Shown piece after piece: positions 135-64,000 of a stretch of DNA of 64,000 nt; positions within the stretch are counted from its first letter, which is position 1; every line of letters starts with the position of its first letter. The stretch is from Yuukianura sp. NJ FZ-2021 (lineage: Eukaryota): assembly GCA_046563655.1 (NCBI GenBank), contig CM102288.1:5146001-5210000 (forward strand). The letters run 5' to 3'. The notes beneath the pieces are model-generated. The model did no database searches. It worked only from the letters and a program-made list of their open reading frames with translations, and was not told the origin of the DNA. A program made the position numbers and the translations under genes.

Positions 135-197
135 GTTGTGGGCATTTTCTATATTTTTTAAAGTTTTGTAGGTTTTTTTTAAAAGTTGAACTTATAC

Positions 198-3100
198 CTG
201 CCATTCTAATTTTACTGAAGTAGAAGACGTAGCATACGCTGTTTTTAATAGGACGACAACCGGCGACTCGAGTTGTTCCCGCGCTTTGCTTACGTCATCG
301 CCGGCACTCTGCCGAGTGGAGAACGTAGTTGTTGTGACAGGATCCGAAAGTGGACTGGGAGGTGACAAAATCCCATCAGCACTAACGCTTCTGACGAAAA
401 ACAAGTATTCTGCATTGGGTTTAAGATACTGAAGAGTGGCTGTCTCTATGGATACTGTTGCTCCTAGCAACCACTCTGATTTGACCTCTTGAGCACTGTA
501 GTACTCCACATTAAACGTGATTCTTCTAATCGAGTTTCCTCTACTGGAGAAAGTTGCAGTCGGCAGAGAGGGAGTCGACGATAATTGAAAATCTGAGGGT
601 GTTGACTCGGGAAATTTGAAAAAATTTGTGGGAGATTCATTTGTAGTTTGATTGGAATTGGTTCTGGGCCTGCTTTGAATAATTAGATTGTACCCGCCGT
701 CGTCTTCATCCTCGTCCTCCATTTCCCGCAACTTTTCGACGCCCGTCTCAAACTGCCCCAGTGCCTCCTCATAGTCATTGTCATCCTCATCTTCTTTTGG
801 CGGTTCTTTCAGGTTCAAATTTCCTGAATTTGGATTGTCCGAGGAAAATTTGGCGCCAATTTTCAAATCCATGTCGTCCATCGGTTCATCTCCGAGCATC
901 GGTTCGGTTTTTTCGGAGATTCGCTTTTCCGACTTTTGCTGAGTTTTAATAGTTACCCGGGGTTCAGCTGAATTCGGTTCGACCGAAAAGTACTTTGGGT
1001 GCCAAGCTATAGTGACTGAAGTGGAGTCGACCTTGACAATGTGTGGTTTCATGGGTGAAGGGCGCAGGATATCTCCGTTGGAACTTCCTGGAAAGCCGGG
1101 GTTAAAGTTTGGGGTATTTTGAGACGTAACGGTGAGGAAGCTTCTCCAAACGTATTTGCCCGAGCGTGAAGACGCCACGCACTCGTACATTCCCGCATCC
1201 TCCAAAGTGAGATCTAGAATCAGAAGATCAAACTTCTAAAAATAGAAAAGGGAAGCTCCCTGTGGAAAAAGTCATAAATTGCCCAGCTCATGCTTCATTT
1301 AATCTTGATTGAGTCTAACAAAAATGGCCAAGAACAAGCTGAACAACCCCCTGTAGGCCCCCCGCCAACTTTCTCAGCGGCAATTCCAACTTTTGAACAA
1401 CTTTGTTAAGAACCAACTTTCTGCCAATTTTCATAATTTTTCAAAAACCTAGCGATTTTCAATGTGCAGATTCTTTTTTGGAACAAACGAATTGACAAAA
1501 ATTTTGAATAAATTGTAAAAACTACAACAGAAATTTTGTTACACCGAAACAAGGAGTTTTTGCTCAACAAAATGAAACCCTTAGCCTTAAACCTTTAGCG
1601 CTAAATTCTTATAGTGTTCTATGCTTTTCCTATTGCTGTGTTCCAGTTAATAAATTTTTGAAGGAATTCGGAGAATGTTTCTGAGTCTTTTACTATACTT
1701 TTTAGTGTTCTAGAAACGCAGAGATGCTGGATGCTGGAGATTGAGGAATGTGTAGGTTTTAATTTTCCCAGAGAGAGAGAGAGTTTTGGAGAAAGTTCTC
1801 TTGTTCATCATGTTCCAGATTCTTCATTTCGCCTCAAAACTTTATTCTGTCGATTCAAGATTTCCCGCCAGGCAAAAGTTGAGAGCTGAGCGAACCGACG
1901 AGGGCTGAATCCGAATTTGGCGGAATGAGGGATGAGGGGAATGTGATCCGCATGCAAAGGAATGCGGCAGATGCTTTCTCCTAACCAACCTTCCCCTTAA
2001 CACCACCAATTCCATGTCGCAAACGACAAGGAGCCACTTTCCCTCCAAACGACACAGACAACATCCTTAGCTCGTCTTTCCAGACGTGCCAAAATTCAAA
2101 AGGAGACACGCCCCTCCAAAAGTCATTTCAAACTGGCAGAATTGGTGATTCGGCTTAAGCCGATTCATACAAAACGATCTCAAGAGAACACGACTTTTGA
2201 CAAACATAAATCCTGCATTTATAATTGAAAAGTTTGTTTTTATCAGGGTTCGAAGGCTGTAACTTACGTCCTGTAACTTACGTAACTTACGTACGTAAGT
2301 TACGTAATTTTCAGAGGGGTTGTAATTTTCGAAATTTTCATTCTTTTGAATTTTGAATTTGAATTCTGCTCGAGAAATACCAGGATATTCTTCGAGCAAT
2401 CTGCTCGAGAAATACCAGGATAATTCTCCAGCAGTCTGCTCGAGAAATACCAGGATATTCTTCGAGCAGTCTGCTCGAGAAATACCAGGATATTCTTCGA
2501 GCAGTCTGCTCGGAAAATACCAGGATATTCCTCGAGCAGTCTGCTCGAGAAATACCAGGATATTCTTCGAGCAGTCTGCTCGAGAAATACCAGGATAATT
2601 CTCGAGCAGTCTGCTCGAGAAATAACATGATATTTTTCGAGCAGTCTGCTCGAAAAATACCAGGATATTCTTCGAGCAATCTGCTCGAGAAATACCAGGA
2701 TAATTCTCGAGCAGTCTGCTCGGGAAATACCAGGATATTCTTCGAGCAATCTGCTCGAAAAATACCAGGATATTCTTCGAGCAATCTGCTCGAGAAATAC
2801 CAGGATAATTCTCGAGCAGTCTGCTCGGAAAATACCAGGATATTCTTCGAGCAGTCTGCTCGAGAAATACCAGGATATTCTTCGAGCAGTCTGCTCGAGA
2901 AATACCAGGATAATTCTCGAGCAGTCTGCTCGAGAAATACAAGGATATTCTTCGAGCAGTCTGCTCGGGAAATACCAGGATATTCTTCGAGCAGTCTGCT
3001 CGAGAAATACCAGGATATTCTTCGAGCAGTCTGCTCGAGAAATAGGTTAGGTTAGGTTAGGATTGGTTAGGTTAGGTTAGGAAATTTGAAAAAAATCGGT

Positions 3101-6100
3101 GGTAGTACACGATAGTAAAATTATTCCACCAATTTTTACTTCTAAATATTTTTTTAAGATTCAGAAACAAACATATTTTCGAAAAAAAAATTAAGTTAGT
3201 GTTGCATGAATTATAACTTCAGAAACAATAAGTTACTTTATACTAACTAAGAAATATTTACTCTGTTAAACTGATCGGTAAAGTTTGAGTGGGAGGTGGA
3301 ACATGCCGACATGCGACACCAAAAAAAAGGACGGTGTAAGAGGTGATGAGATTGGAGTAATCATAAGCGAGCCTGAGGAAGAGTTAGATGTGATGGCAAT
3401 GGAATAATTAGTGTTATGTTTCTCGAACTATTTGTGTTAATTGCGTTAAGTGTGTTAGTTTAGTCTTAAAAATAAAATAGTAGTAAATATTGTCTACCGC
3501 AGTATATTTCTATCAAGCCTTGGTTTGATTTTTAACGCAATTAGATAGTAGATATTAATAGTTTATGGTTTGGGGATGGGAGTGGGGTGCAGGCGGCTTG
3601 TTTTGAAAATTACAATCTTACGTAGATTACGTAAGTTACGATAATTACGTAAGTTACGTAGTTTTCGGCAAAAATACCGTAATTTTCGAACCCTGGTTTT
3701 TATGGTTCCCAAAACCGGAAACTATTTATGTGTTCAGTAATCCTAACACGCCGTTGCATATTGTATTTTATCAGTTGATAGGAAAAAATCCATTTTCAAT
3801 ATTTTGGATGCTTCTTTTTCTTTATTTTTTAGTTTGACTTAACGCGACTTATGCTCTAATTAAACTTTCTAACAATAAGTGATGACTCGCAATGTCGACT
3901 CAACAAGAGACGCTTTTTCTCTCAACAATTTCTGTGACCTTTGACCTCTCCCTCGCCAAGCGCTCTCCTCTCTCTCATCCAGGATGAACATTTTAAGGTC
4001 GATTTCTATTCCGCCTCAGTCTTTCCTTTGTCTTTGGCGATGGATCCTGAATGTGGAATCGTGAGTGCATAACTAAGGAGAAATCGGAGGAATCCGACAA
4101 AGCAACTGAGTCGACTTGACGTGAATCTCAAGCAATCCCAAGTGCAATCGGAGTTGAATACAAAAGTAGCTTTTAAGAAATCAGCACACTTTTATGGGGC
4201 TTTCCCCTTTGTCTTTGAAGCACAAATGGACAAAAGAACAGTTGTGCTTTACCGTTAATACGCAGAGTTCCTGCCGCGTCTGTAAAGATGCGGTGATTGA
4301 GGGGGAAGGAGTTGGAATCCTTGTACCATGTGATCACAGGGAGCGGACTTCCTTCTGCTCGACATGGCAACACAGCCACCCCACCTAAACTTCGCGTTTC
4401 GTTACCCGCTCCAGTCAAAATTATCGGTGGCGGTAAATCTTCAATCGGAGTAACCTGAAAAATTATTTGAAAAAAATTAAATTTTTTAAAATCATAGATT
4501 TGCATTCCAATGGATTTTAGTTTTGATTTCCACCAATTTTTGACATCTCTATCACTGACATCACATTAGCAGAGGACTGTTTCAGATTGCCCCAATATGA
4601 CTTTTAAAAATGGCGGGAAAATGTAAACTCTTGAATTTTGTTTTCGTAGAAAGCTTTTGATTGCATTCATTTAATGTAAATGGAAAACAGAGTGGAAATA
4701 CATGTGAGCCGAATGTACTGGCCGGACTAATTTCCTGTTTGAAATTTTGGAATGCGGGAAAATTTTGAATTTTGGCGGTCAATCATTTGCTTACCTTCAG
4801 ATGGATTTTGTGCATAACCGATCCAGCGTACGAAACAGCAGCACAGAACCAAAACCCTTCATCCCGCTCCGACACATTGTCAATCTGCAAATGGAAAAAA
4901 GAGACACCAGATTAGCTTTCCCCTCCGGACACACCGCCCCCACGTCATCTCTCTCACACTATACTTATTATCCACCCCTCCCCACCCACTACTCATATTT
5001 TCCCCCTGCTACTATACCCCCCCCCCCTTACACCCCCAGACCCCCCCCCACCCAGCCTCAATTCAATTAGCTCACAAACTTTGACTGCCTTTCACTTTTC
5101 TCAATTTCCTCAATTACTTTCACCAGAACCTCCTCCGAGCCAAAACTGTCTCCCTGCCAAACCCAATTTCAGAAACTCGGGGTAAAGTCGGAGTATTTCG
5201 ATGAATTTCAGAAAAATGATACTTTTTCGAAAATGTATTTCGAAAAGTAAAAGTTAACTTGATTTTGCGTGGTACCTTGAGTGTTCCGTCCTGGCCAACG
5301 TGCAAGTTATGAGATGACGTTCCTTGGAAAACGACAGAGTGACTTCCTTCTTTGGACCAAAAAAGCGTGGGATGTGGATCTCCCTGAGCAACACACTCAA
5401 ACACTGCACTTTCGTTTGGTTGAAGTTCAAGGTCGTTTGGTTTAACTGTAAAAATGGGTGGAGCTGAAAGGTTCAAAATTTCAAGAAAACGTTTAAGAAA
5501 GAAACTTATTTCTGTTTTTTTTTTTTTTTGATTTCCCAAAGTTTTGCGGCTTACTCAGAATAGTGATTGTGGCAGCAGATACGATGGATCCTGCTTTGTT
5601 CTCAGCGATGCAGCGATAAACTCCGGCGTCTTCTGCTGAAACGTTTGAAATCAAAAAGCGCTCTTCGTCAAACCGAGCTCTTTTGAGCGGCAGACTCCCA
5701 CGCTCCTTATTCCATGAGATTTCCGGTGGCGGATCTCCTCGAGCGACACAAACTACATAAAAGTGAAACCGCGGTCAAAATTTAGAAAATTCAGAATTTT
5801 TAAGAATCCAACACTGTTGTACCTAGTGATACGTCGCTTCCTAAAAGCGCAGACGTATTTGCTGGTACGATTGTAAACTGCGGACGGACGATGACTCTGA
5901 GATGAGCTGGATTTGATTGTCGAAGGCCCACGATACTTTTGGCTACGCAGACGTAGTTCCCCTCATCATCTTCTCGGACGTCCGAAATGCTTAGACTCCC
6001 CAGTCCTAGCACGGTGAATCGCCTAAGGTAGTTAGAATTACGAATTAATTGCAATTCACAAATTCCTGCACGTACTAACGAAAGAATTAATTCTAAAAAC

Positions 6101-9100
6101 GCTTTGACTTCTTAACAAACGCGCAAGAAAAGTTAAATTTTAATGTTGCATTTCTTTTCAATAATTTTTTTCGGCTTGTAATTATAATTATGTTAAGTAA
6201 TTCGGTAAAATAGCTGCAAGTAATTATAGAAATTACTTGACCCTCGAAACTGTGTAATTCCTAGTTCCGTGCCAGCATAAATCTGAGTTCCAAAAGATTA
6301 GAACAAAGGGAAAGTCATGAGTGTTGCATTAATTAAGGACGGGATTACATTCGGATCTAATTGAAAAGATTTGAGAGTGAAGATCAAGCGGAGAACGAAA
6401 AGCTTCGCTTGCAGCCTCCGTGAATGCCCAACTCTGCTTTTGTTCCTTTTGTGTTTTGACTTATGTGCGGTTGGAAGTGGGCGGAAGCTCCATCAAATAT
6501 GAAATTAGAAAAGGAAACCATACACATGTGGGCAGGATTTATGTCTTCCCAGACTCTCCACAATGGAGAAAGCACAAAGTCACAAAATAATCCTCACTAC
6601 AGTTACTCCTTTCACCACAGGCACAAACCTAGTCTAACGTAACATAACGTAACTGGAGGCCACAAGTCAGGATCTAGAAACCACAAATTATGTGCAACAA
6701 TCCACTCATTTAGACCGTCTAAAAAAATTTTAGAGCTGGAGGGAACTTTAAATTGGACACAAAGTTATTTCTAATTTGCTCTTTCTTGTAGTAAGTGTGC
6801 TGTGTCTAAACGTGCTTCAAAATTTTTATAACTTTTTTTTTTCAAAATTTTGAAAAAAGTGCTTACCCAGCCCCTTTTACATCAATGACTTGTCCGTTCT
6901 TTTTCCAAAATACTTTTGGTTCGGGATTTCCACGCGGCGGTTCACAGTCCAAAATTGCCGTTTCTCCTTGAGCTATCCACGTATTTTGTGGAGAAATTCG
7001 GAAGTCTTCACGAAGTGCTAAACCACAAAAGAAAAACAGCCAAATTTGTTGAAATTTTCAAAATTCAAAATTTTTGAAATTTTTTTTTGAAAAATTTGGA
7101 TGGGTTGACATTGCCAAAGTAGGAAGGGATGCATCATGAAAAAGTTTCTGGAAAGTCAAAGAAGTCACCAGTGCAAGCATAATTCAATCACCGTTGATTC
7201 CCTTTGACTTCAACCGTAGAAAACAACTATACCAAAAAAAAAAACTGAAAATTCTTTCAAAATTATGAAACAAAATAATTTTTTTATTACAAAAACTGTT
7301 TCAATTTCCGCCTACTTTTTGTCTCTTACTTGTATGATTTAAGTTTGTGTAATTGTTTGTAACCCAACAATCCCTTTATACAAACCCACTCGAGTGTTGC
7401 TGACTTTTTCCAATCGACAGACTTTTATTTGACGGCCGTCGCTTGACTTTTGTGCTTATGACAGATTTGAATTCTCCCTCCACCCATCACAACTTCCCGC
7501 ATTTTTTCCACACGTCGACTCCAGGATTTGAACCCACACCGTTAGGTTGACGTTAGGTTAGGGTGACTGTTTGTAGCACACTTTTGAGCACAACGTCCTT
7601 CCACTTGAAGTGATACGCAGACGATAAAGAAATTAGGACCAGCTATGAATCACCCTCTCAATTTAAGTTTTAGGCAAAGTCAGCGGAAGGCAAAACGAAA
7701 CCGCCCGCCAACTTTCAAAATTTCAAATTTTAAGCAACTCCTCTCCTTTCCCGCTACTCTAATTTCAAAAGAAGAGGAGTCCTCAACCACAAAACGTTCC
7801 TTGACTTTGTTCGAGTGTCGTCTTGAGACCACTTCCGTTCCACAAGAGCATATGCCGCACTCAACCAACTTCCACTTAAAACTTACACATTCACGTAATT
7901 TCCTAAATTAATGTTTCAACGTCTTCCACTTAAGCACCCACAAACTTGGCGCCAACTTTTGAAACTCAGAAAAAACCATTTCCAAATTCAAAATTCAGTA
8001 TAGCCTTTTCTTGCAATTGTGAACTTACACGAAGTCTCATGTATTCCTCTCCTCCATAGTATGGTTTTCGCAAGGTTCCTATGGCAACGAAATAGTTTCT
8101 TTTAACAGGTTGGGCAATAAGTCCTGCTTACAAAAAATTACACCCTGGAAATTTTTTTCCATTTTCTAACGTCCAAGTTTTGAAGAAGTTTGCGAATGAC
8201 TTATTTTGAAATTGAATTGTTAAAAAATTAAAAGTGATGACACTGTTTTGAAGTGTTTTCGTTTTTAGCGGTTTTGTTAAATTTTCGAAATCCACACTCC
8301 TGATCAGGTGAATGGTGAAAGTGAAAGGTTGTTTGAAAAGAAAAATTCGAGTTTTTGCCACTTGAATAGAGAGAAATGCGGTTGTCATTACACTGCCTCT
8401 TTTGCTTTCTGTTCCAATTCCCACTTTCTCCATTTCCTTTTTACAAAAGAAAATAATACGTAATTTTTTTTTCAAATTCTTTTTAAAAAATTCTGTTCTT
8501 TTCAGAAACATGTGTTAAGAGCACGCTGTTCCATTCTTTTGTGAAAGATTTATGTTTGGAACTTATGCAAAATTAAGTAGAGAAGGAACTTGTAAAGCTT
8601 CTCATAAAAAGAAGTTTTTTGTGCTCTTTTTCTAGAAAATGAGGATGTAAGTTTGAACATGAAATGAGCATTTTTTCTCTTTCTAATTTCGGGTTTAGTT
8701 TGAATGAAAGCAGAACACCTGAAAATTAATATGGAAAATACGACAAGAGAATCATAATTCTGAAGAATCGATTTACGAAAAATCGTTTTCTCCTTCAAAC
8801 TGACAAGCTGATTATTACTTTCCATTTTCACTCTTCAATTTTTAGGGCCTCACGTTTTCATTCTCTGCTTAATTTTCTCTACTCACCATTTTTATCAAAT
8901 TTTTCAAAAAAGAAGAACTCAAATCAAAAATTCCTCATCATCACGTTCCTCATTTTAGAATCAATCTTAACTTTCTACTCTTCATAATCATTTTCTCCTC
9001 GAATCCAACAAAAGACGATGAACAAATGAGAAAACTGAAACAATGGAAATTATAAGAAACAAAAACTGCTGTAGAAAATCTACTCTGCGTAGCTCAATAA

Positions 9101-49241: not shown

Positions 49242-52200
49242 ATGGATGGAAAAGAAAAAAGTGATTTGACTAAAACTTCATTGTATGAGTTTCGGCATAA
49301 TCTCGGGTTGCTATTGGATACGCGCTACAAATTGTTGGTAAGTCAAATTAACTAAAAGTTCAGCTTATTTTAATTTTAAACGAAGACGATATCATGATTA
49401 TAACGTGACGCGTACACGTTTAGAGATCAATCACCTCTATAATTTAAGTATACTTTCTTGTTTATGACTGCAGAATAGTATGTAAGGGAGGTTAAAGTGG
49501 TTTAACCTTAATTAAGGAAATACAAAATAATTGTATTTCCTATGTTGGACTTTTAGGAGCTTAGGTTATTGTGTGTGTTTATGCCTCTGTTCTGCCGTGC
49601 CTGTGTGTGTTCGTGAATTTAACTCATTCGTGCGCATGCGCTATATCCACCTAATCTGCGACTAAATTTCTGTCCGGTGCGTAGATACGAGATCACCGAA
49701 GGAATTAATTAATTTGTGATTTCGATTTCTTAAGTAAATTTATTCTCCGTTGTTGAGACTCTCTGTATGTGAACAGCTTCAGTTTTGGTTTAGTTAGACT
49801 GGGAAAAAATATTTAGTACCCAAAACCTATAATGTTAATGTAAATCGTTTAGGGGCTTCATAAACTAAATATTTATATTTTTTTCGGTGTACCTAATGTT
49901 AATCATTGAAACATATTTGGTTTCTTTTATTGCAAAAATTAATATTTGAAAATATTTAAAATGCGTTTGTAAATATTTTTTTCCACTATAACAATTGATT
50001 TTAATTTTCTTAAAGTTTTGGCGCAGGTTGAGTTAGGCTTAAAAGTATAAAGGTATAGGTGGGTTTTGGTGCAAAATTCACCCATTTGCGATTTGGTTTC
50101 ATTTTGTCGGTCTAAAACGATCTGTCCTCTTGCAGGTTTAGTATTCCGAATTGCCGCCGATTTTCTAAAGAAAAGTTGGAGATTCTTCTGTATTAGATTT
50201 GATGCCGATGACGCATACCATCCAACATAACTGGTTACAATAAGTCTATTGTTCACTTTCTAAAAACATAAACTGTGAGTATAAGACAATGTTATCAATT
50301 CACAACGACGGACAACCGTAAATCTAAATTTGTCTTTTACAAATAACGCCCCGGCATATCTTGTTTTTAGCTTTCTTTCTGAACAAAGAACAATAGAAAT
50401 TGGAAAAAATCGCTGCGTTTGAAATTGTTTACATGGTTGTAATGGAGTTGTAAGTTAAATACATCAAATAAGAACAGTCAGCACTGTCACTATCCAAAGT
50501 CGAAAGAGAAAATGATGAGGAAAGAAGGAATGAAGGATGAGAAAAGCACAACAATGTGTTGACCTAGCTTTATTTCTACATTTCAGTTTAGTTTATAATT
50601 AAAAGGCTTATCTTGCTCATTTTTCAAATCGTGGTTTTGTTCTCGTCGTCGTGTGATGACTCAAGCAGAGCGATGGTATGGAATGTGAACATAATTACGA
50701 CGAACCTTGGGGTTTTATGATTTTGAAACTAATTAATTAAAATACGGATTCATGTTTCATTAGACGTTTAATTTTTTTGGGATTTGCAGGGTCTTCAAAT
50801 GTCACATATTGAAAAGGAATATAGTTTCTGGTTCAAGGAACAGATGAAATTGGATTGCCTAGAAACCCATGAAAGTAGCTGGCCGGCATTGTTCAAACAT
50901 GAAAAATTGCTCAAGGACAGATTCTTTGTTGTGACGAAAAATAGCGTCCAATATGTCAAAAGCAACCCAGATAAATTGGGCGAAGACAGTACAGAGCTGT
51001 TCAGTTTTGCCAATTACAAAGAATTGCAACAATGGAGAGCCGGAAACAAAGTAAAGCCATGTACAGCCGAAGCTGGCGTACAAGTATCGTTGCTGCCGCA
51101 ATTTCCAAGTATTGCTGAAGACGTTGCTAAATTTCAAGAAAGGCCTTTCTTACATAGGAGCATTTCATTGGAATCTGGAGCTTCGGTACCAGTAAAAGTA
51201 CAATCGTACAAGTGTGAGGTTGCAGACTGCGCAGTTCTGGCAGAAATACTTCAGGTGGAAGCTGTCACACAAACGTCTCACCGCCGTTTAAAAGATAATG
51301 CCAGTCAAACGTCTTTTCTTCGCCAGCGCCGTTCTGTAGATTCTGGAACTCAAACCGTTACTTCTACTTTAGTGGAAAGCGCAGTTCAAACACCTCAGAG
51401 TCCATTAGTCGCCACTGGAGTACAAACAACTCGAACGGTAAATGCTCGAATTCAAACTCGACCCATTGTGAATTGCTCAAAAATTGGCGCTGGAACTCAA
51501 ACTGAAAACAGTCAGATATCCAGTTCTGGCGGAACTCAAAAGTCCATTGCCAGTAGGGCGCCGACTGGTAATAAAAAATTACAAAAATCGAGTTGCACTG
51601 GAGGGGCTACTGGAAATCAAAATCTTAAAAAATCCAGCTTTGTTGCTGGAAACAGAGAAATTCAAAATATACAAAATTCCAGTGCAGTGAATGCTGAAAT
51701 TCATTTACCAAAGTTCAGTTCCAATTTTGCGCCCGCCAATACTGGAAATGTACAAAGATCTAGCTCGATTGAAGGGACTGCTGAAATACAAAGCTTACAA
51801 AAATCCAGTTCCGTTGGAGGAATCACTCGGAGTCAACGTATCCAAAAGAACAGTTCAATTGGAGTTGAAAGTTCTCAGCATTCCAGTTCTGCTGCAACTC
51901 AAAATCCTAATAAACAGATTACTGTTGGAGTGGATACTAGGACTCAACTGCCACCGTCGTCAAGTCATGATGCAGAAATCAGCGTTCAGACGCTTCCTAT
52001 ACTGACGCTGGAACCCCAGAGTGGAAATGATGAACCTGTTTCAACCTCGCATACGTCTCAACCTTTGGCGTCGTTCCAACCAGTACCAACCATTAGTACC
52101 ACACACGAGATTTCCACTGCTGTAAGTGTACACAAATTAACTAAGCAAGGTTGTGTGGTTTTCGTTTTTTTTAAATATAGATCAGTAAACTGGGTTTAAA

Positions 52201-58876: not shown

Positions 58877-59896
58877 TTAGAATTTCAGCGCCATCACAAT
58901 CGCCACTTCGTCTTCCTTTGCGTTCGGCATCAACTGTTGACCATCCTTTCCGACAAAGTCTCTAAAGTATTTCCGTGCAAGTTCTTCAAATCCGTATTTG
59001 ATCACCACTTTCTGCATAAAGGGACTTGTGAAGGTACTTTTGCAGAGTGGAATTCCACGTGACCTGAGGAGATCAAATGACCTCCTGTAGATTTCTGTCG
59101 CAAGTCCTTGACCTCTGTATTTTGGATCCACACTTGTGAAGATCAATTCTGCATACTCCTGGATACCATAACGCTCGTAGATGTTTATAGATTCATCTAG
59201 ACCAAGAACATTTGCACGAATATCTCCAATTATTTTCGATTTGAAATCCAAGGGAGCCTCTTCTGGGTTATCCGGTCTCTCAATGTAAGTCACCATCACG
59301 CCAGCCACCTACAAAAATAAACATTAACATGAACTTGGCTTTTTAACTGTTCCCAACATGCATGGGTTATATGACCGGGTAATCCAAGTGAACTGGCAAT
59401 AAATCTCAGTGGACCCCAAATCACACGAAGGCTGCAAATGTATGTACCTATGCGATGGGTACAATGGGATAGGATCAATTAGAGCAATACTAAAACTTGA
59501 ACCGGAGGGTACAGCGGGGAGCCCAAGTTTACTTCAACCAATCACAAACAATCTTCATGGAATAAGAAAGTGAAAAAACGACACAAGAACGTATGCACAA
59601 CTTCAAAAATGGCGGCAAAATGTTTTTCTTGAAGTTTGTGATACCTCGCTAGTGGTCTTGTCCAAAGCTAAGAAACTGAGCCTGTCAGTTTCGTTTTTCT
59701 TCAAAATGAGAGCAGCGAAACTTGAAAAATCGTCCAGAAAGTCTGAAGATTCGTAAGCTTTCATGGCCTTCTTGATTGGCTCATCCTTGCAAAAAACGTG
59801 GAGTAAATTTTCAAGGACGCGTTCCTCATCTTCGGGTTCAATCATTTTAAACACAAAGTTTTTCCACTCTCCCGCCACACAACTTGATCCCTCCAT
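58877..59896 (-). CDS. GNAT N-acetyltransferase of the insect arylalkylamine/dopamine N-acetyltransferase (AANAT-like) family, 227 aa
   Basis: Two exons, 59896-59645 and 59308-58877 (phase 0). FCKDEP motif, SFLALD...EVAGV, acetyl-CoA motif VDPKYRGQGLA, and TSPFMQKV...GFE. Confidence 0.9.
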
Positions 59897-60741: not shown

Positions 60742-60860
60742 GCCAAGGTCCATACCACGTTGAAAGCACCAGTTCTCGTCCGATCACTGAAGTTAAGCAA
60801 CGTCGGGCCCGGTTAGTACTTGGATGGGTGACCGCCTGGGAACCCCGGGTGCTCTTGGCT
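60742..60860 (+). rRNA. 5S rRNA: 5S rRNA, copy 1
   Basis: GCCAAGGTCCATACCACGTTGAAAGCACCAGTTCTCGTCCGATCACTGAAGTTAAGCAACG...GTACTTGGATGGGTGACCGCCTGGGAAC...CTTGGCT, followed by an oligo-T Pol III terminator. Confidence 0.98.
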
Positions 60861-60947: not shown

Positions 60948-61066
60948 GCCAAGGTCCATACCACGTTGAAAGCACCAGTTCTCGTCCGATCACTGAAGTT
61001 AAGCAACGTCGGGCCCGGTTAGTACTTGGATGGGTGACCGCCTGGGAACCCCGGGTGCTCTTGGCT
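60948..61066 (+). rRNA. 5S rRNA: 5S rRNA, copy 2
   Basis: Identical to copy 1; oligo-T terminator. Confidence 0.98.
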
Positions 61067-61154: not shown

Positions 61155-61273
61155 GCCAAGGTCCATACCACGTTGAAAGCACCAGTTCTCGTCCGATCAC
61201 TGAAGTTAAGCAACGTCGGGCCCGGTTAGTACTTGGATGGGTGACCGCCTGGGAACCCCGGGTGCTCTTAGCT
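61155..61273 (+). rRNA. 5S rRNA: 5S rRNA, copy 3 (one substitution)
   Basis: As copy 1 except G>A at 61270 in the terminal helix. Confidence 0.97.
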
Positions 61274-61362: not shown

Positions 61363-61481
61363 GCCAAGGTCCATACCACGTTGAAAGCACCAGTTCTCGT
61401 CCGATCACTGAAGTTAAGCAACGTCGGGCCCGGTTAGTACTTGGATGGGTGACCGCCTGGGAACCCCGGGTGCTCTTGGCT
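61363..61481 (+). rRNA. 5S rRNA: 5S rRNA, copy 4
   Basis: Identical to copy 1; oligo-T terminator. Confidence 0.98.
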
Positions 61482-62004
61482 TCTTTTTTTTACCCACGTT
61501 CTCCAACTCCTTTTTTTTGAACGTGGACACTCATGAGATAAATGCCGATAACCGATAACAAATGATGTACGCACTCACATTAATGCAATCATGCCAAAAG
61601 TTTAAAGAACTCTGGACTTTCCTCCCTCTTTTACGAATATAAAGGTCTTGTTTTTCTTTCCAATGTCGTGTTCATGGCATAGCTCATTTTGTTGCAATTT
61701 TTTGTTTCGTGCTAGAGATCTGGAACCGGATTTTGGAAGTAAACCTTCATTGCTTCATTGGAAGACTGTAGTTTCTCATTTTCAGTTTGATTTCGATTTC
61801 ATAGCTACGCTTTCTTATTGTCCGTGAACTTCCAAACTGTCTGCCTTTTCTTCGTGTGTTTAGAAAATTCACATCGCCATCAACGCCGTGCACAATTTTT
61901 CCACTTCTTTTCTTTCCGCCTGGGGCTAAAGTTTTCCTGTTGTTCATTTATTTTCAATTTCCACTTCAAAGATATAAAAGTGTACAAATTGTGCAATTCG
62001 CGAT

Positions 62005-63991
<1,987 letters not shown>

Positions 63992-64000
63992 GTATGTCAA

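Follow-up and report, generated by a model that had tools for sequence, protein, structure and literature searches.

A long acidic loop in the first fibronectin domain of a Robo-type receptor gene, probably translated and confined to one lineage

Introduction

Robo ectodomains are regarded as strongly conserved arrays of five immunoglobulin (Ig) and three fibronectin type III (FN3) domains (PMC7580999). We analyzed a stretch of 64,000 nucleotides from Yuukianura sp. NJ FZ-2021 (GenBank assembly GCA_046563655.1, contig CM102288.1, positions 5,146,001 to 5,210,000), hereafter the window, whose minus strand carries exons of a Robo/SAX-3-type receptor gene. In the first FN3 domain of this receptor (FN3-1, or FN1), the frame stays open for 160 codons from strand B to strand C, compared with 7-36 residues in 74 other Robo-type proteins. 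An earlier note on this DNA, made from the sequence alone, had proposed that 450 nt of this extra stretch (544..993) form an exitron, that is, a segment inside a coding exon that is kept in one isoform and spliced out of another. The locus therefore raises the question of whether the extra stretch is an optional intron, an ordinary intron that happens to be open, or protein-coding sequence, and what a loop of this size might do in a Robo receptor. We read 544..993 as part of a translated, lineage-specific, single-origin, disordered and polyanionic mucin-like expansion of the B-C loop of Robo FN3-1, a reading that we consider probable (about 0.78) from sequence comparison and structure prediction.

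Results

A Robo-type receptor with a split FN3-1 domain

FN3-1 is encoded in a minus-strand open reading frame (ORF) of 347 aa (192..1235), which is a single open frame. The exon within it is bordered by the acceptor gattctag/AT (1214/1213) and the donor CAG/GTATAA (198/197), and both junctions agree with those of P0152 (TLRIND/L.. and ..EWQ/IVNAG), a spliced NCBI model named 'unnamed protein product, partial [Allacma fusca]' from a springtail. The Ig-domain exons at 4173-6111 (Pfam Ig_3 and I-set) are followed by FN3-1 and the start of FN3-2, an order within the window that is the same as in Robo. The best sequence match among solved structures is ROBO2 (E 4.7e-18), and contactins reach ~1e-5. 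The gene is a Robo/SAX-3-type receptor, nearer to known Robo than to other receptors of the Ig superfamily with FN3 domains. ORF residues 50-305 were modeled with AlphaFold2 (AF2) from a 29-row alignment, giving a mean predicted local distance difference test score (pLDDT) of 67.5. The parts of the gene that bear on the question are as follows.

4253..4454, minus strand: upstream exon, N-terminal half of Ig5 (splice sites read from the sequence; Pfam Ig_3, 32.4 bits; collinear with P0152)
198..1213, minus strand: coding exon of 1016 nt, with the end of Ig5 (C-terminal half), the whole of FN3-1 including the insert, a linker and the first strand of FN3-2 (splice sites read from the sequence)
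1002..1061, minus strand: FN3-1 strands A and B, 20 aa, with strand B (SVTIAW) at 1002-1019 (AF2 strands at model residues 16-20 and 25-28, pLDDT 95-97; aligns to ROBO2 chain 463-541)
522..1001, minus strand: expanded B-C loop, 160 residues (ORF aa 79-238), cysteine-free, net charge -14, 21% Asp/Glu (D/E), 28% Ser/Thr/Pro (S/T/P), predicted disordered (composition; AF2 pLDDT 45-60, no secondary structure)
544..993, minus strand: candidate 450-nt exitron within this loop, GT at 993-992 (AAA/GTACTT) and AG at 545-544 (CTCCAG/T), both phase 2 (read from the sequence)
336..521, minus strand: FN3-1 strands C to G, with strand C (ITFNVEYYS) at 495-521 (Pfam fn3, 30.7 bits; AF2 pLDDT 94-97; Z 15.1 to Robo3 FN1, 6pol)

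Two kinds of alignment break at the insert. The Pfam fn3 profile (PF00041) matches ORF residues 233-295 only, which correspond to profile positions 26-79 of 84 (30.7 bits, cut-off 25). Since this match starts at profile position 26, the first third of the domain sits beyond the insert. ORF residues 85-232 had no match to any family in the Pfam scan. The alignment to human ROBO2 (6iaa) is likewise split, with query residues 4-87 on chain residues 463-541 and query residues 243-347 on chain residues 547-648; only five chain residues lie between the two blocks, and ~150 residues are extra in the query. The D/E- and S/T/P-rich insertion that the earlier note had placed in the B-C loop of Robo FN3-1 is thus confirmed, at 160 codons.

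In the AF2 model, pLDDT reaches 94-97 at residues 11-30 and 191-250, and strands A-B and C-G join in a single FN3 sandwich. Over model residues 41-180, the 10-residue blocks have pLDDT values of 45-58 and no secondary structure, and the block 181-190 averages 60. The best fold match among 48,161 chains is Robo3 FN1 (6pol_A; Z 15.1, root mean square deviation 1.7, 93 aligned residues, 34% identity), followed by ROBO2 (6iaa_A; Z 14.6), and many FN3 structures match with Z of 11-15. By a Pfam score above the gathering cut-off and a predicted seven-strand sandwich, FN3-1 is a fibronectin type III domain. The model indicates that the insert is an intrinsically disordered loop within an otherwise normal Robo FN1.

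Compared with known Robo/SAX-3 receptors (ROBO2 6iaa, ROBO3 FN1 6pol and the mosquito protein P0153), the window gene has, over the exons read, the same Ig-FN3 order and collinear Ig5/FN3-1 flanks, and its FN3-1 fold matches ROBO2 and ROBO3 FN1 with Z of 14.6-15.1 and 34-35% identity. The difference lies in the distance from the strand-B Trp to strand C, which is ~11 residues in known Robo/SAX-3 and 160 residues, with conserved motifs of their own, in the window. A search of the ESM Atlas with the whole ORF returned generic Ig/FN3 clusters only, and with the insert alone it returned no usable match.

The insert is probably coding sequence inherited within one clade

Of 1.84 billion representatives searched, 215 proteins matched at E<=0.001, and a scan of metagenome contigs gave five DNA loci (L001-L005). 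The closest relatives (P0001-P0007, P0015 and P0024) are plain ORFs whose frame continues across a long insert in the equivalent position, and altogether ten relatives keep the frame open at the insert site, over 164-458 residues. At the DNA level, L001 has an ORF of 413 aa with an insert of 164 aa, L002 an ORF of 373 aa with an insert of 166 aa, and L004 an ORF of 667 aa with an insert of 458 aa; L005 is a partial locus. The flanking exon parts in the window are intact, with 71% protein identity to L001. Given the stop frequency of the neighboring intron (0.040), itself low owing to an open tandem repeat, a frame that stays open over the window insert has a probability of 1.4e-3, and over that of L004 one of 6.6e-9. 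The other frames over this stretch of the window are interrupted by stops.

The spliced Allacma fusca model retains an insert of 283 residues between the same exon borders. It shares with the window the two junctions, the insert position, an acidic run with tyrosine, the motif NLIIQS and a Thr/Pro-rich tail, with 57-58% identity in the flanks. It differs in the length of the insert, which is largely unalignable outside these motifs, and it is an automatic, partial model.

We compared the inserts alone by local alignment, scoring each pair against 300 shuffles. The window and L001 inserts align with a z-score of 11.5, those of L002 and L004 with 10.1, and those of L001 and L004 with 4.7, and in each case none of the 300 shuffles reached the observed score. 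The alignment of L001 and L002 has a z-score of 4.3, and one shuffle reached its score. These comparisons indicate that the inserts are homologous beyond shared composition. Between lineages, the proportion of synonymous differences (pS) is saturated at 0.71-0.91, and the proportion of nonsynonymous differences (pN) is 0.43-0.56 in the insert versus 0.19-0.34 in the flanks. As pN of the insert lies below saturated pS and above pN of the flanks, the insert evolves 2-3 times faster than the domain core, yet not neutrally.

The distribution of loop lengths suggests a trait of one lineage. Among the 81 hits in which both flanks are measurable, the interval from the strand-B Trp to strand C is 164-458 residues in 7 and 7-36 residues (mostly 9-11) in 74, and the latter group includes the mosquito 'protein sax-3-like' P0153. 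In a quick maximum-likelihood tree of the C-terminal part of FN3-1 (104 rows; with only 111 columns, many forks are unresolved), the window falls inside a 13-row clade that has a support of 100 in the Shimodaira-Hasegawa-like approximate likelihood ratio test (SH-aLRT). All 8 rows with the insert belong to this clade, together with 5 partial rows whose state is unknown; canonical rows are missing from it, and the insert trait changes state once on the tree. To judge from the tree and the measured loops, the insert is lineage-specific, old and of single origin, and its length has since varied from ~160 to ~460 residues. The insert-bearing clade is probably Collembola or a group near it, its single named member being Allacma fusca. 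A transposon or repeat origin of the insert was considered and rejected, as no second copy of the insert DNA is found within the window.

Several observations weigh against the insert being constitutive coding sequence of common origin. The window insert aligns weakly with those of L002 (z-score 2.2, 12 of 300 shuffles) and L004 (z-score 0.8, 59 of 300 shuffles). The majority of relatives were called as plain ORFs from short contigs, and the sole spliced model, P0152, was predicted automatically, possibly without support from RNA. Searches for longer relatives gave P0001 and the mosquito P0153, which has a canonical loop, and no full-length insert bearer was found by them. In the window, moreover, a GT..AG pair of suitable spacing and phase looks usable, and constitutive inclusion of the insert is an inference. 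Finally, the locus L003 (742-1750), nearly a copy of L001 with nucleotide identity of 83-85% and 59 gaps over 739 aligned bases, is frameshifted. Because the shifts strike Ig5, the FN3 core and the insert alike, L003 is a pseudogene or an error-rich contig and is uninformative on the insert specifically. With these points taken into account, we believe that the insert is quite probably translated, that is, coding exon sequence.

If so, a clade that keeps an acidic loop of 160-460 residues in FN1 through saturating synonymous divergence would be a natural experiment on how much FN1 tolerates, and it could show whether signaling responds to charge or bulk at the Ig5-FN1 elbow.

Two features of the relatives may be recorded here. 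At residues ~318-345 of P0015, ~26 stop-free codons (YIHTKNRLL...TSTYFF) stand between TYKV and QVEYYS. They resemble a small intron in frame that the ORF caller failed to remove; if so, strand C would be interrupted by an intron in that lineage. In L001 (1530-1540), the exon end homologous to window position 198 reads CAG/GCAAGT, a GC-type donor (CAG/GTATAA in the window).

Removal of the insert by splicing is unlikely

If the 450 nt were kept in one isoform and spliced from 993 to 544 in another, a canonical FN3-1 would exist beside the insert-bearing form, as the earlier note had proposed. The observations behind that proposal hold. The GT at 993 and the AG at 544 have the same phase (phase 2) and are exactly 450 nt apart, and excision of 544..993 leaves a stop-free frame with a B-C loop of 10 residues, the canonical Robo length. 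GTAC donors are used elsewhere in the gene, in two of the six readable donors (TAG/GTACAA at 5822 and AAG/GTACCA at 5275). The candidate acceptor has a pyrimidine fraction of 0.67, a fair tract. The window insert moreover fits all three exitron traits given in PMC4484396 (weak splice sites, a long exon and a disordered region), and it resembles the exitrons of Marquez et al. 2015 described there in lying inside a long coding exon between GT and AG, in being stop-free and disordered, and in having a length divisible by 3. Exitrons are defined by observed alternative splicing; the likeness of the window insert is one of DNA sequence, and its candidate splice sites are unconserved and no better than chance.

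When the codons of the window insert were shuffled, 32.6% of 500 shuffles gave at least one in-frame GT..AG pair leaving a loop of 6-16 aa; the insert itself has two such pairs, which share one donor, against a shuffle mean of 0.52. A clean in-frame pair around a disordered insert is thus expected by chance about once in three cases, and exitrons should not be called from such pairs without RNA. The orthologue comparison that the earlier note had suggested gave a divided answer, as all ten relatives keep the frame but not the splice sites. The donor GT is present in three of five loci (AAG TAC in the window, AAG TAT in L001 and CGG TAC in L004) and absent in L002 (AAA TAC) and L005 (AAA TAT). 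This GT consists of the third base of a Lys/Arg codon and the first base of a Tyr codon, and it varies as a synonymous site would. The AG/T acceptor is found in one of four loci, the window only, and the numbers of suitable in-frame pairs in the four complete loci are 2, 1, 0 and 0.

Neither site stands out within the exon. Scored against the consensus MAG/GTRAGT, the candidate donor matches 6 of 9 positions, as do several real donors of the gene; it is without G at both -1 and +5, while all six real donors have at least one of these. Six of 48 in-exon GTs score equal to or above the candidate donor, and 11 other in-exon AGs (of 65) equal or exceed the pyrimidine fraction of the candidate acceptor. 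Among the 81 measurable hits, no short loop was seen together with high flank identity, and the Allacma fusca model retains its insert. The comparative evidence speaks against a selected exitron, with a GT..AG pair at chance level and not conserved, so the two-isoform proposal of the earlier note is unsupported and we consider it unlikely.

The same GT..AG pair is the sole support for the view that the stretch is a constitutive intron of the usual kind whose frame is open by chance, or else an assembly artifact or a pseudogene. A frame open in ten relatives over up to 458 codons, the retention of motifs, pN below saturated pS, and flanking exon parts that are intact at the identity to L001 given above all argue against it, and this view is highly improbable. 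Our literature searches gave nothing about the insert. Among the papers listed that combine exitrons and Robo, none deals with a Robo exitron, judged by titles and the beginnings of abstracts, and the papers that combine Collembola and roundabout are biodiversity databases; none was found on springtail Robo and Slit.

Layout of the insert

On the reading that the insert is a translated loop, its parts can be compared among relatives. The ten inserts compared are all cysteine-free, with net charges of -8 to -41 and 17-21% D/E. A common layout is visible in them, with a [KR]Y[FW] anchor followed by a charged head, an F motif with an acidic run, the motif NLII[QK]S and an S/T/P-rich tail. In the window, these parts are as follows.

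987..998, minus strand: PKYF anchor directly after strand B, with the candidate donor GT inside its K-Y codons (sequence and relatives)
915..932, minus strand: dibasic site SEKRIS in the charged head of the insert ([KR]R in 10 of 10 inserts)
765..797, minus strand: first acidic run, 11 aa, with a tyrosine (sequence)
720..752, minus strand: conserved F-[ED]-x-x-[VLM]-x-x-[LI] motif, 11 aa (aligned in the window, P0002, P0005, P0003 and L004)
690..719, minus strand: second acidic run, 10 aa, with a tyrosine at its end (sequence)
672..689, minus strand: NLIIQS motif, the best-conserved element of the insert (comparison of 10 inserts)
543..671, minus strand: S/T/P-rich (48%) mucin-like tail with two N-x-S/T sequons, NQT and NES (composition)

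The anchor [KR]Y[FW] follows AW[HDN]P in the window and in nine of ten relatives; the exception, P0015, has TQY. NLII[QK]S is exact in six of ten inserts, occurs as a variant in two and is absent in two. In the eight inserts that have the NLII motif, S/T/P content is 44-51% in the tail and 12-26% in the head.

The tyrosines of the inserts are concentrated near acidic residues, as the earlier note had pointed out for the window. In nine inserts, 29 of 44 tyrosines have at least three D/E within 5 residues on either side, against a mean of 10.3 when non-acidic residues are permuted, and none of 1000 permutations reached 29. In the window insert, two of three tyrosines have this context. A tyrosine amid several acidic residues in a protein of the secretory pathway is a hallmark of tyrosine-sulfation sites. 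The insert tyrosines stand in a sulfation-type context, and sulfation itself is a prediction. In composition, the insert resembles mucin-like and tyrosine-sulfated receptor segments, with a tail of 44-51% S/T/P and tyrosines enriched in acidic runs. Unlike a terminal or interdomain stalk, it loops out from within a folded FN3 domain, and the likeness is one of composition.

Possible functions of the loop

The B-C loop sits at the N-terminal pole of an FN3 domain, which places the insert next to the Ig5-FN1 junction. In ROBO2, Ig4 to FN2 fold into a compact hairpin, and whether a mammalian Robo is open or closed, and its oligomeric state, can be dictated by FN1 (PMC7083938). Regulation by Comm and Robo2 in Drosophila is reported to require the Fn repeats (PMC7580999).

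We suggest the following mode of action. The insert would most likely be present in the main or only isoform, and the FN3 sandwich is predicted to assemble from two halves that flank a disordered, cysteine-free, net-negative loop. In the secretory pathway, the tail may be O-glycosylated and the acidic tyrosines sulfated. At the N-terminal pole of FN3-1, by the Ig5-FN3-1 junction, the modified insert would then form a bulky polyanionic brush. Since FN1 sets the open or closed and oligomeric state, such a brush would most plausibly tune the conformation of the ectodomain, its spacing, or its heparan-sulfate-dependent ligand contacts. We put this mode of action forward tentatively, as one possibility. 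The roles that the earlier note had suggested, a heparan-sulfate mimic, a spacer or a cleavage site, are likewise conjectural.

A more specific proposal is that the insert is a functional regulator rather than a passive spacer, becoming, once O-glycosylated and sulfated on tyrosine, a tethered polyanion at the hairpin elbow that replaces or competes with heparan sulfate at basic Slit/Robo surfaces or holds the ectodomain open, and that in lineages with an R-x-K/R-R site it may be cut to give a two-chain Robo. We regard this as a speculative and rather unlikely extension of the brush. The cleavage part can also be considered separately, as a processing loop in which furin-type cleavage in FN3-1 produces a two-chain receptor joined by a split beta-sandwich, which would be compatible with a translated loop expansion. 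The S1 cleavage loop of Notch follows a comparable logic. The furin-type processing motif is R-x-[KR]-R, and it occurs in six of ten inserts (five of nine if the near-duplicates P0001 and P0007 are counted once), against a probability of 0.03-0.15 for each shuffled insert; a [KR]R site is found in the head of all ten. The relatives that have R-x-[KR]-R are not independent samples, though, and the motif is absent from the inserts of the window, P0002, P0004 and P0152, which have dibasic sites only (KR in the window). Processing of this kind is doubtful. If the regulator or the two-chain reading were true, it would be a previously undescribed way of tuning a Robo receptor.

Other features of the window

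The introns of the Robo-type gene contain several repeats. The ~3-kb intron upstream of the FN3 exon carries a 35-bp tandem repeat (2365-3044, 19.4 copies, 91% matches), whose several open frames on the two strands reach 329 aa and can mislead ORF callers. An interstitial TTAGG-type repeat (3043-3082, period 5, 7.8 copies) adjoins this array. TTAGG is the usual arthropod telomere unit, and because the motif is typical of arthropods, its presence in the intron fits an arthropod source of the DNA. A G-rich tract with runs of 7-9 G lies at ~4940-5070 on the minus strand, in the intron separating two Ig4 exons.

Farther away, a 475-codon open frame at 50772-52199 on the plus strand is rich in S/T/Q repeats and has no Pfam match. 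Rfam and tRNA scans of the window detected one array only, consisting of four tandem 5S rRNA genes on the plus strand (60742-60860, 60948-61066, 61155-61273 and 61363-61481), which repeat every ~207 bp and score 105-109 bits. The long ORFs on both strands across this array are repeat artifacts. Neighboring exons encode a GNAT-type acetyltransferase (PF00583, 25.2 bits; 58877-59308, minus strand) and a carboxylesterase (PF00135, 40.8 and 25.8 bits; 61978-62292 and 63460-63999, plus strand).

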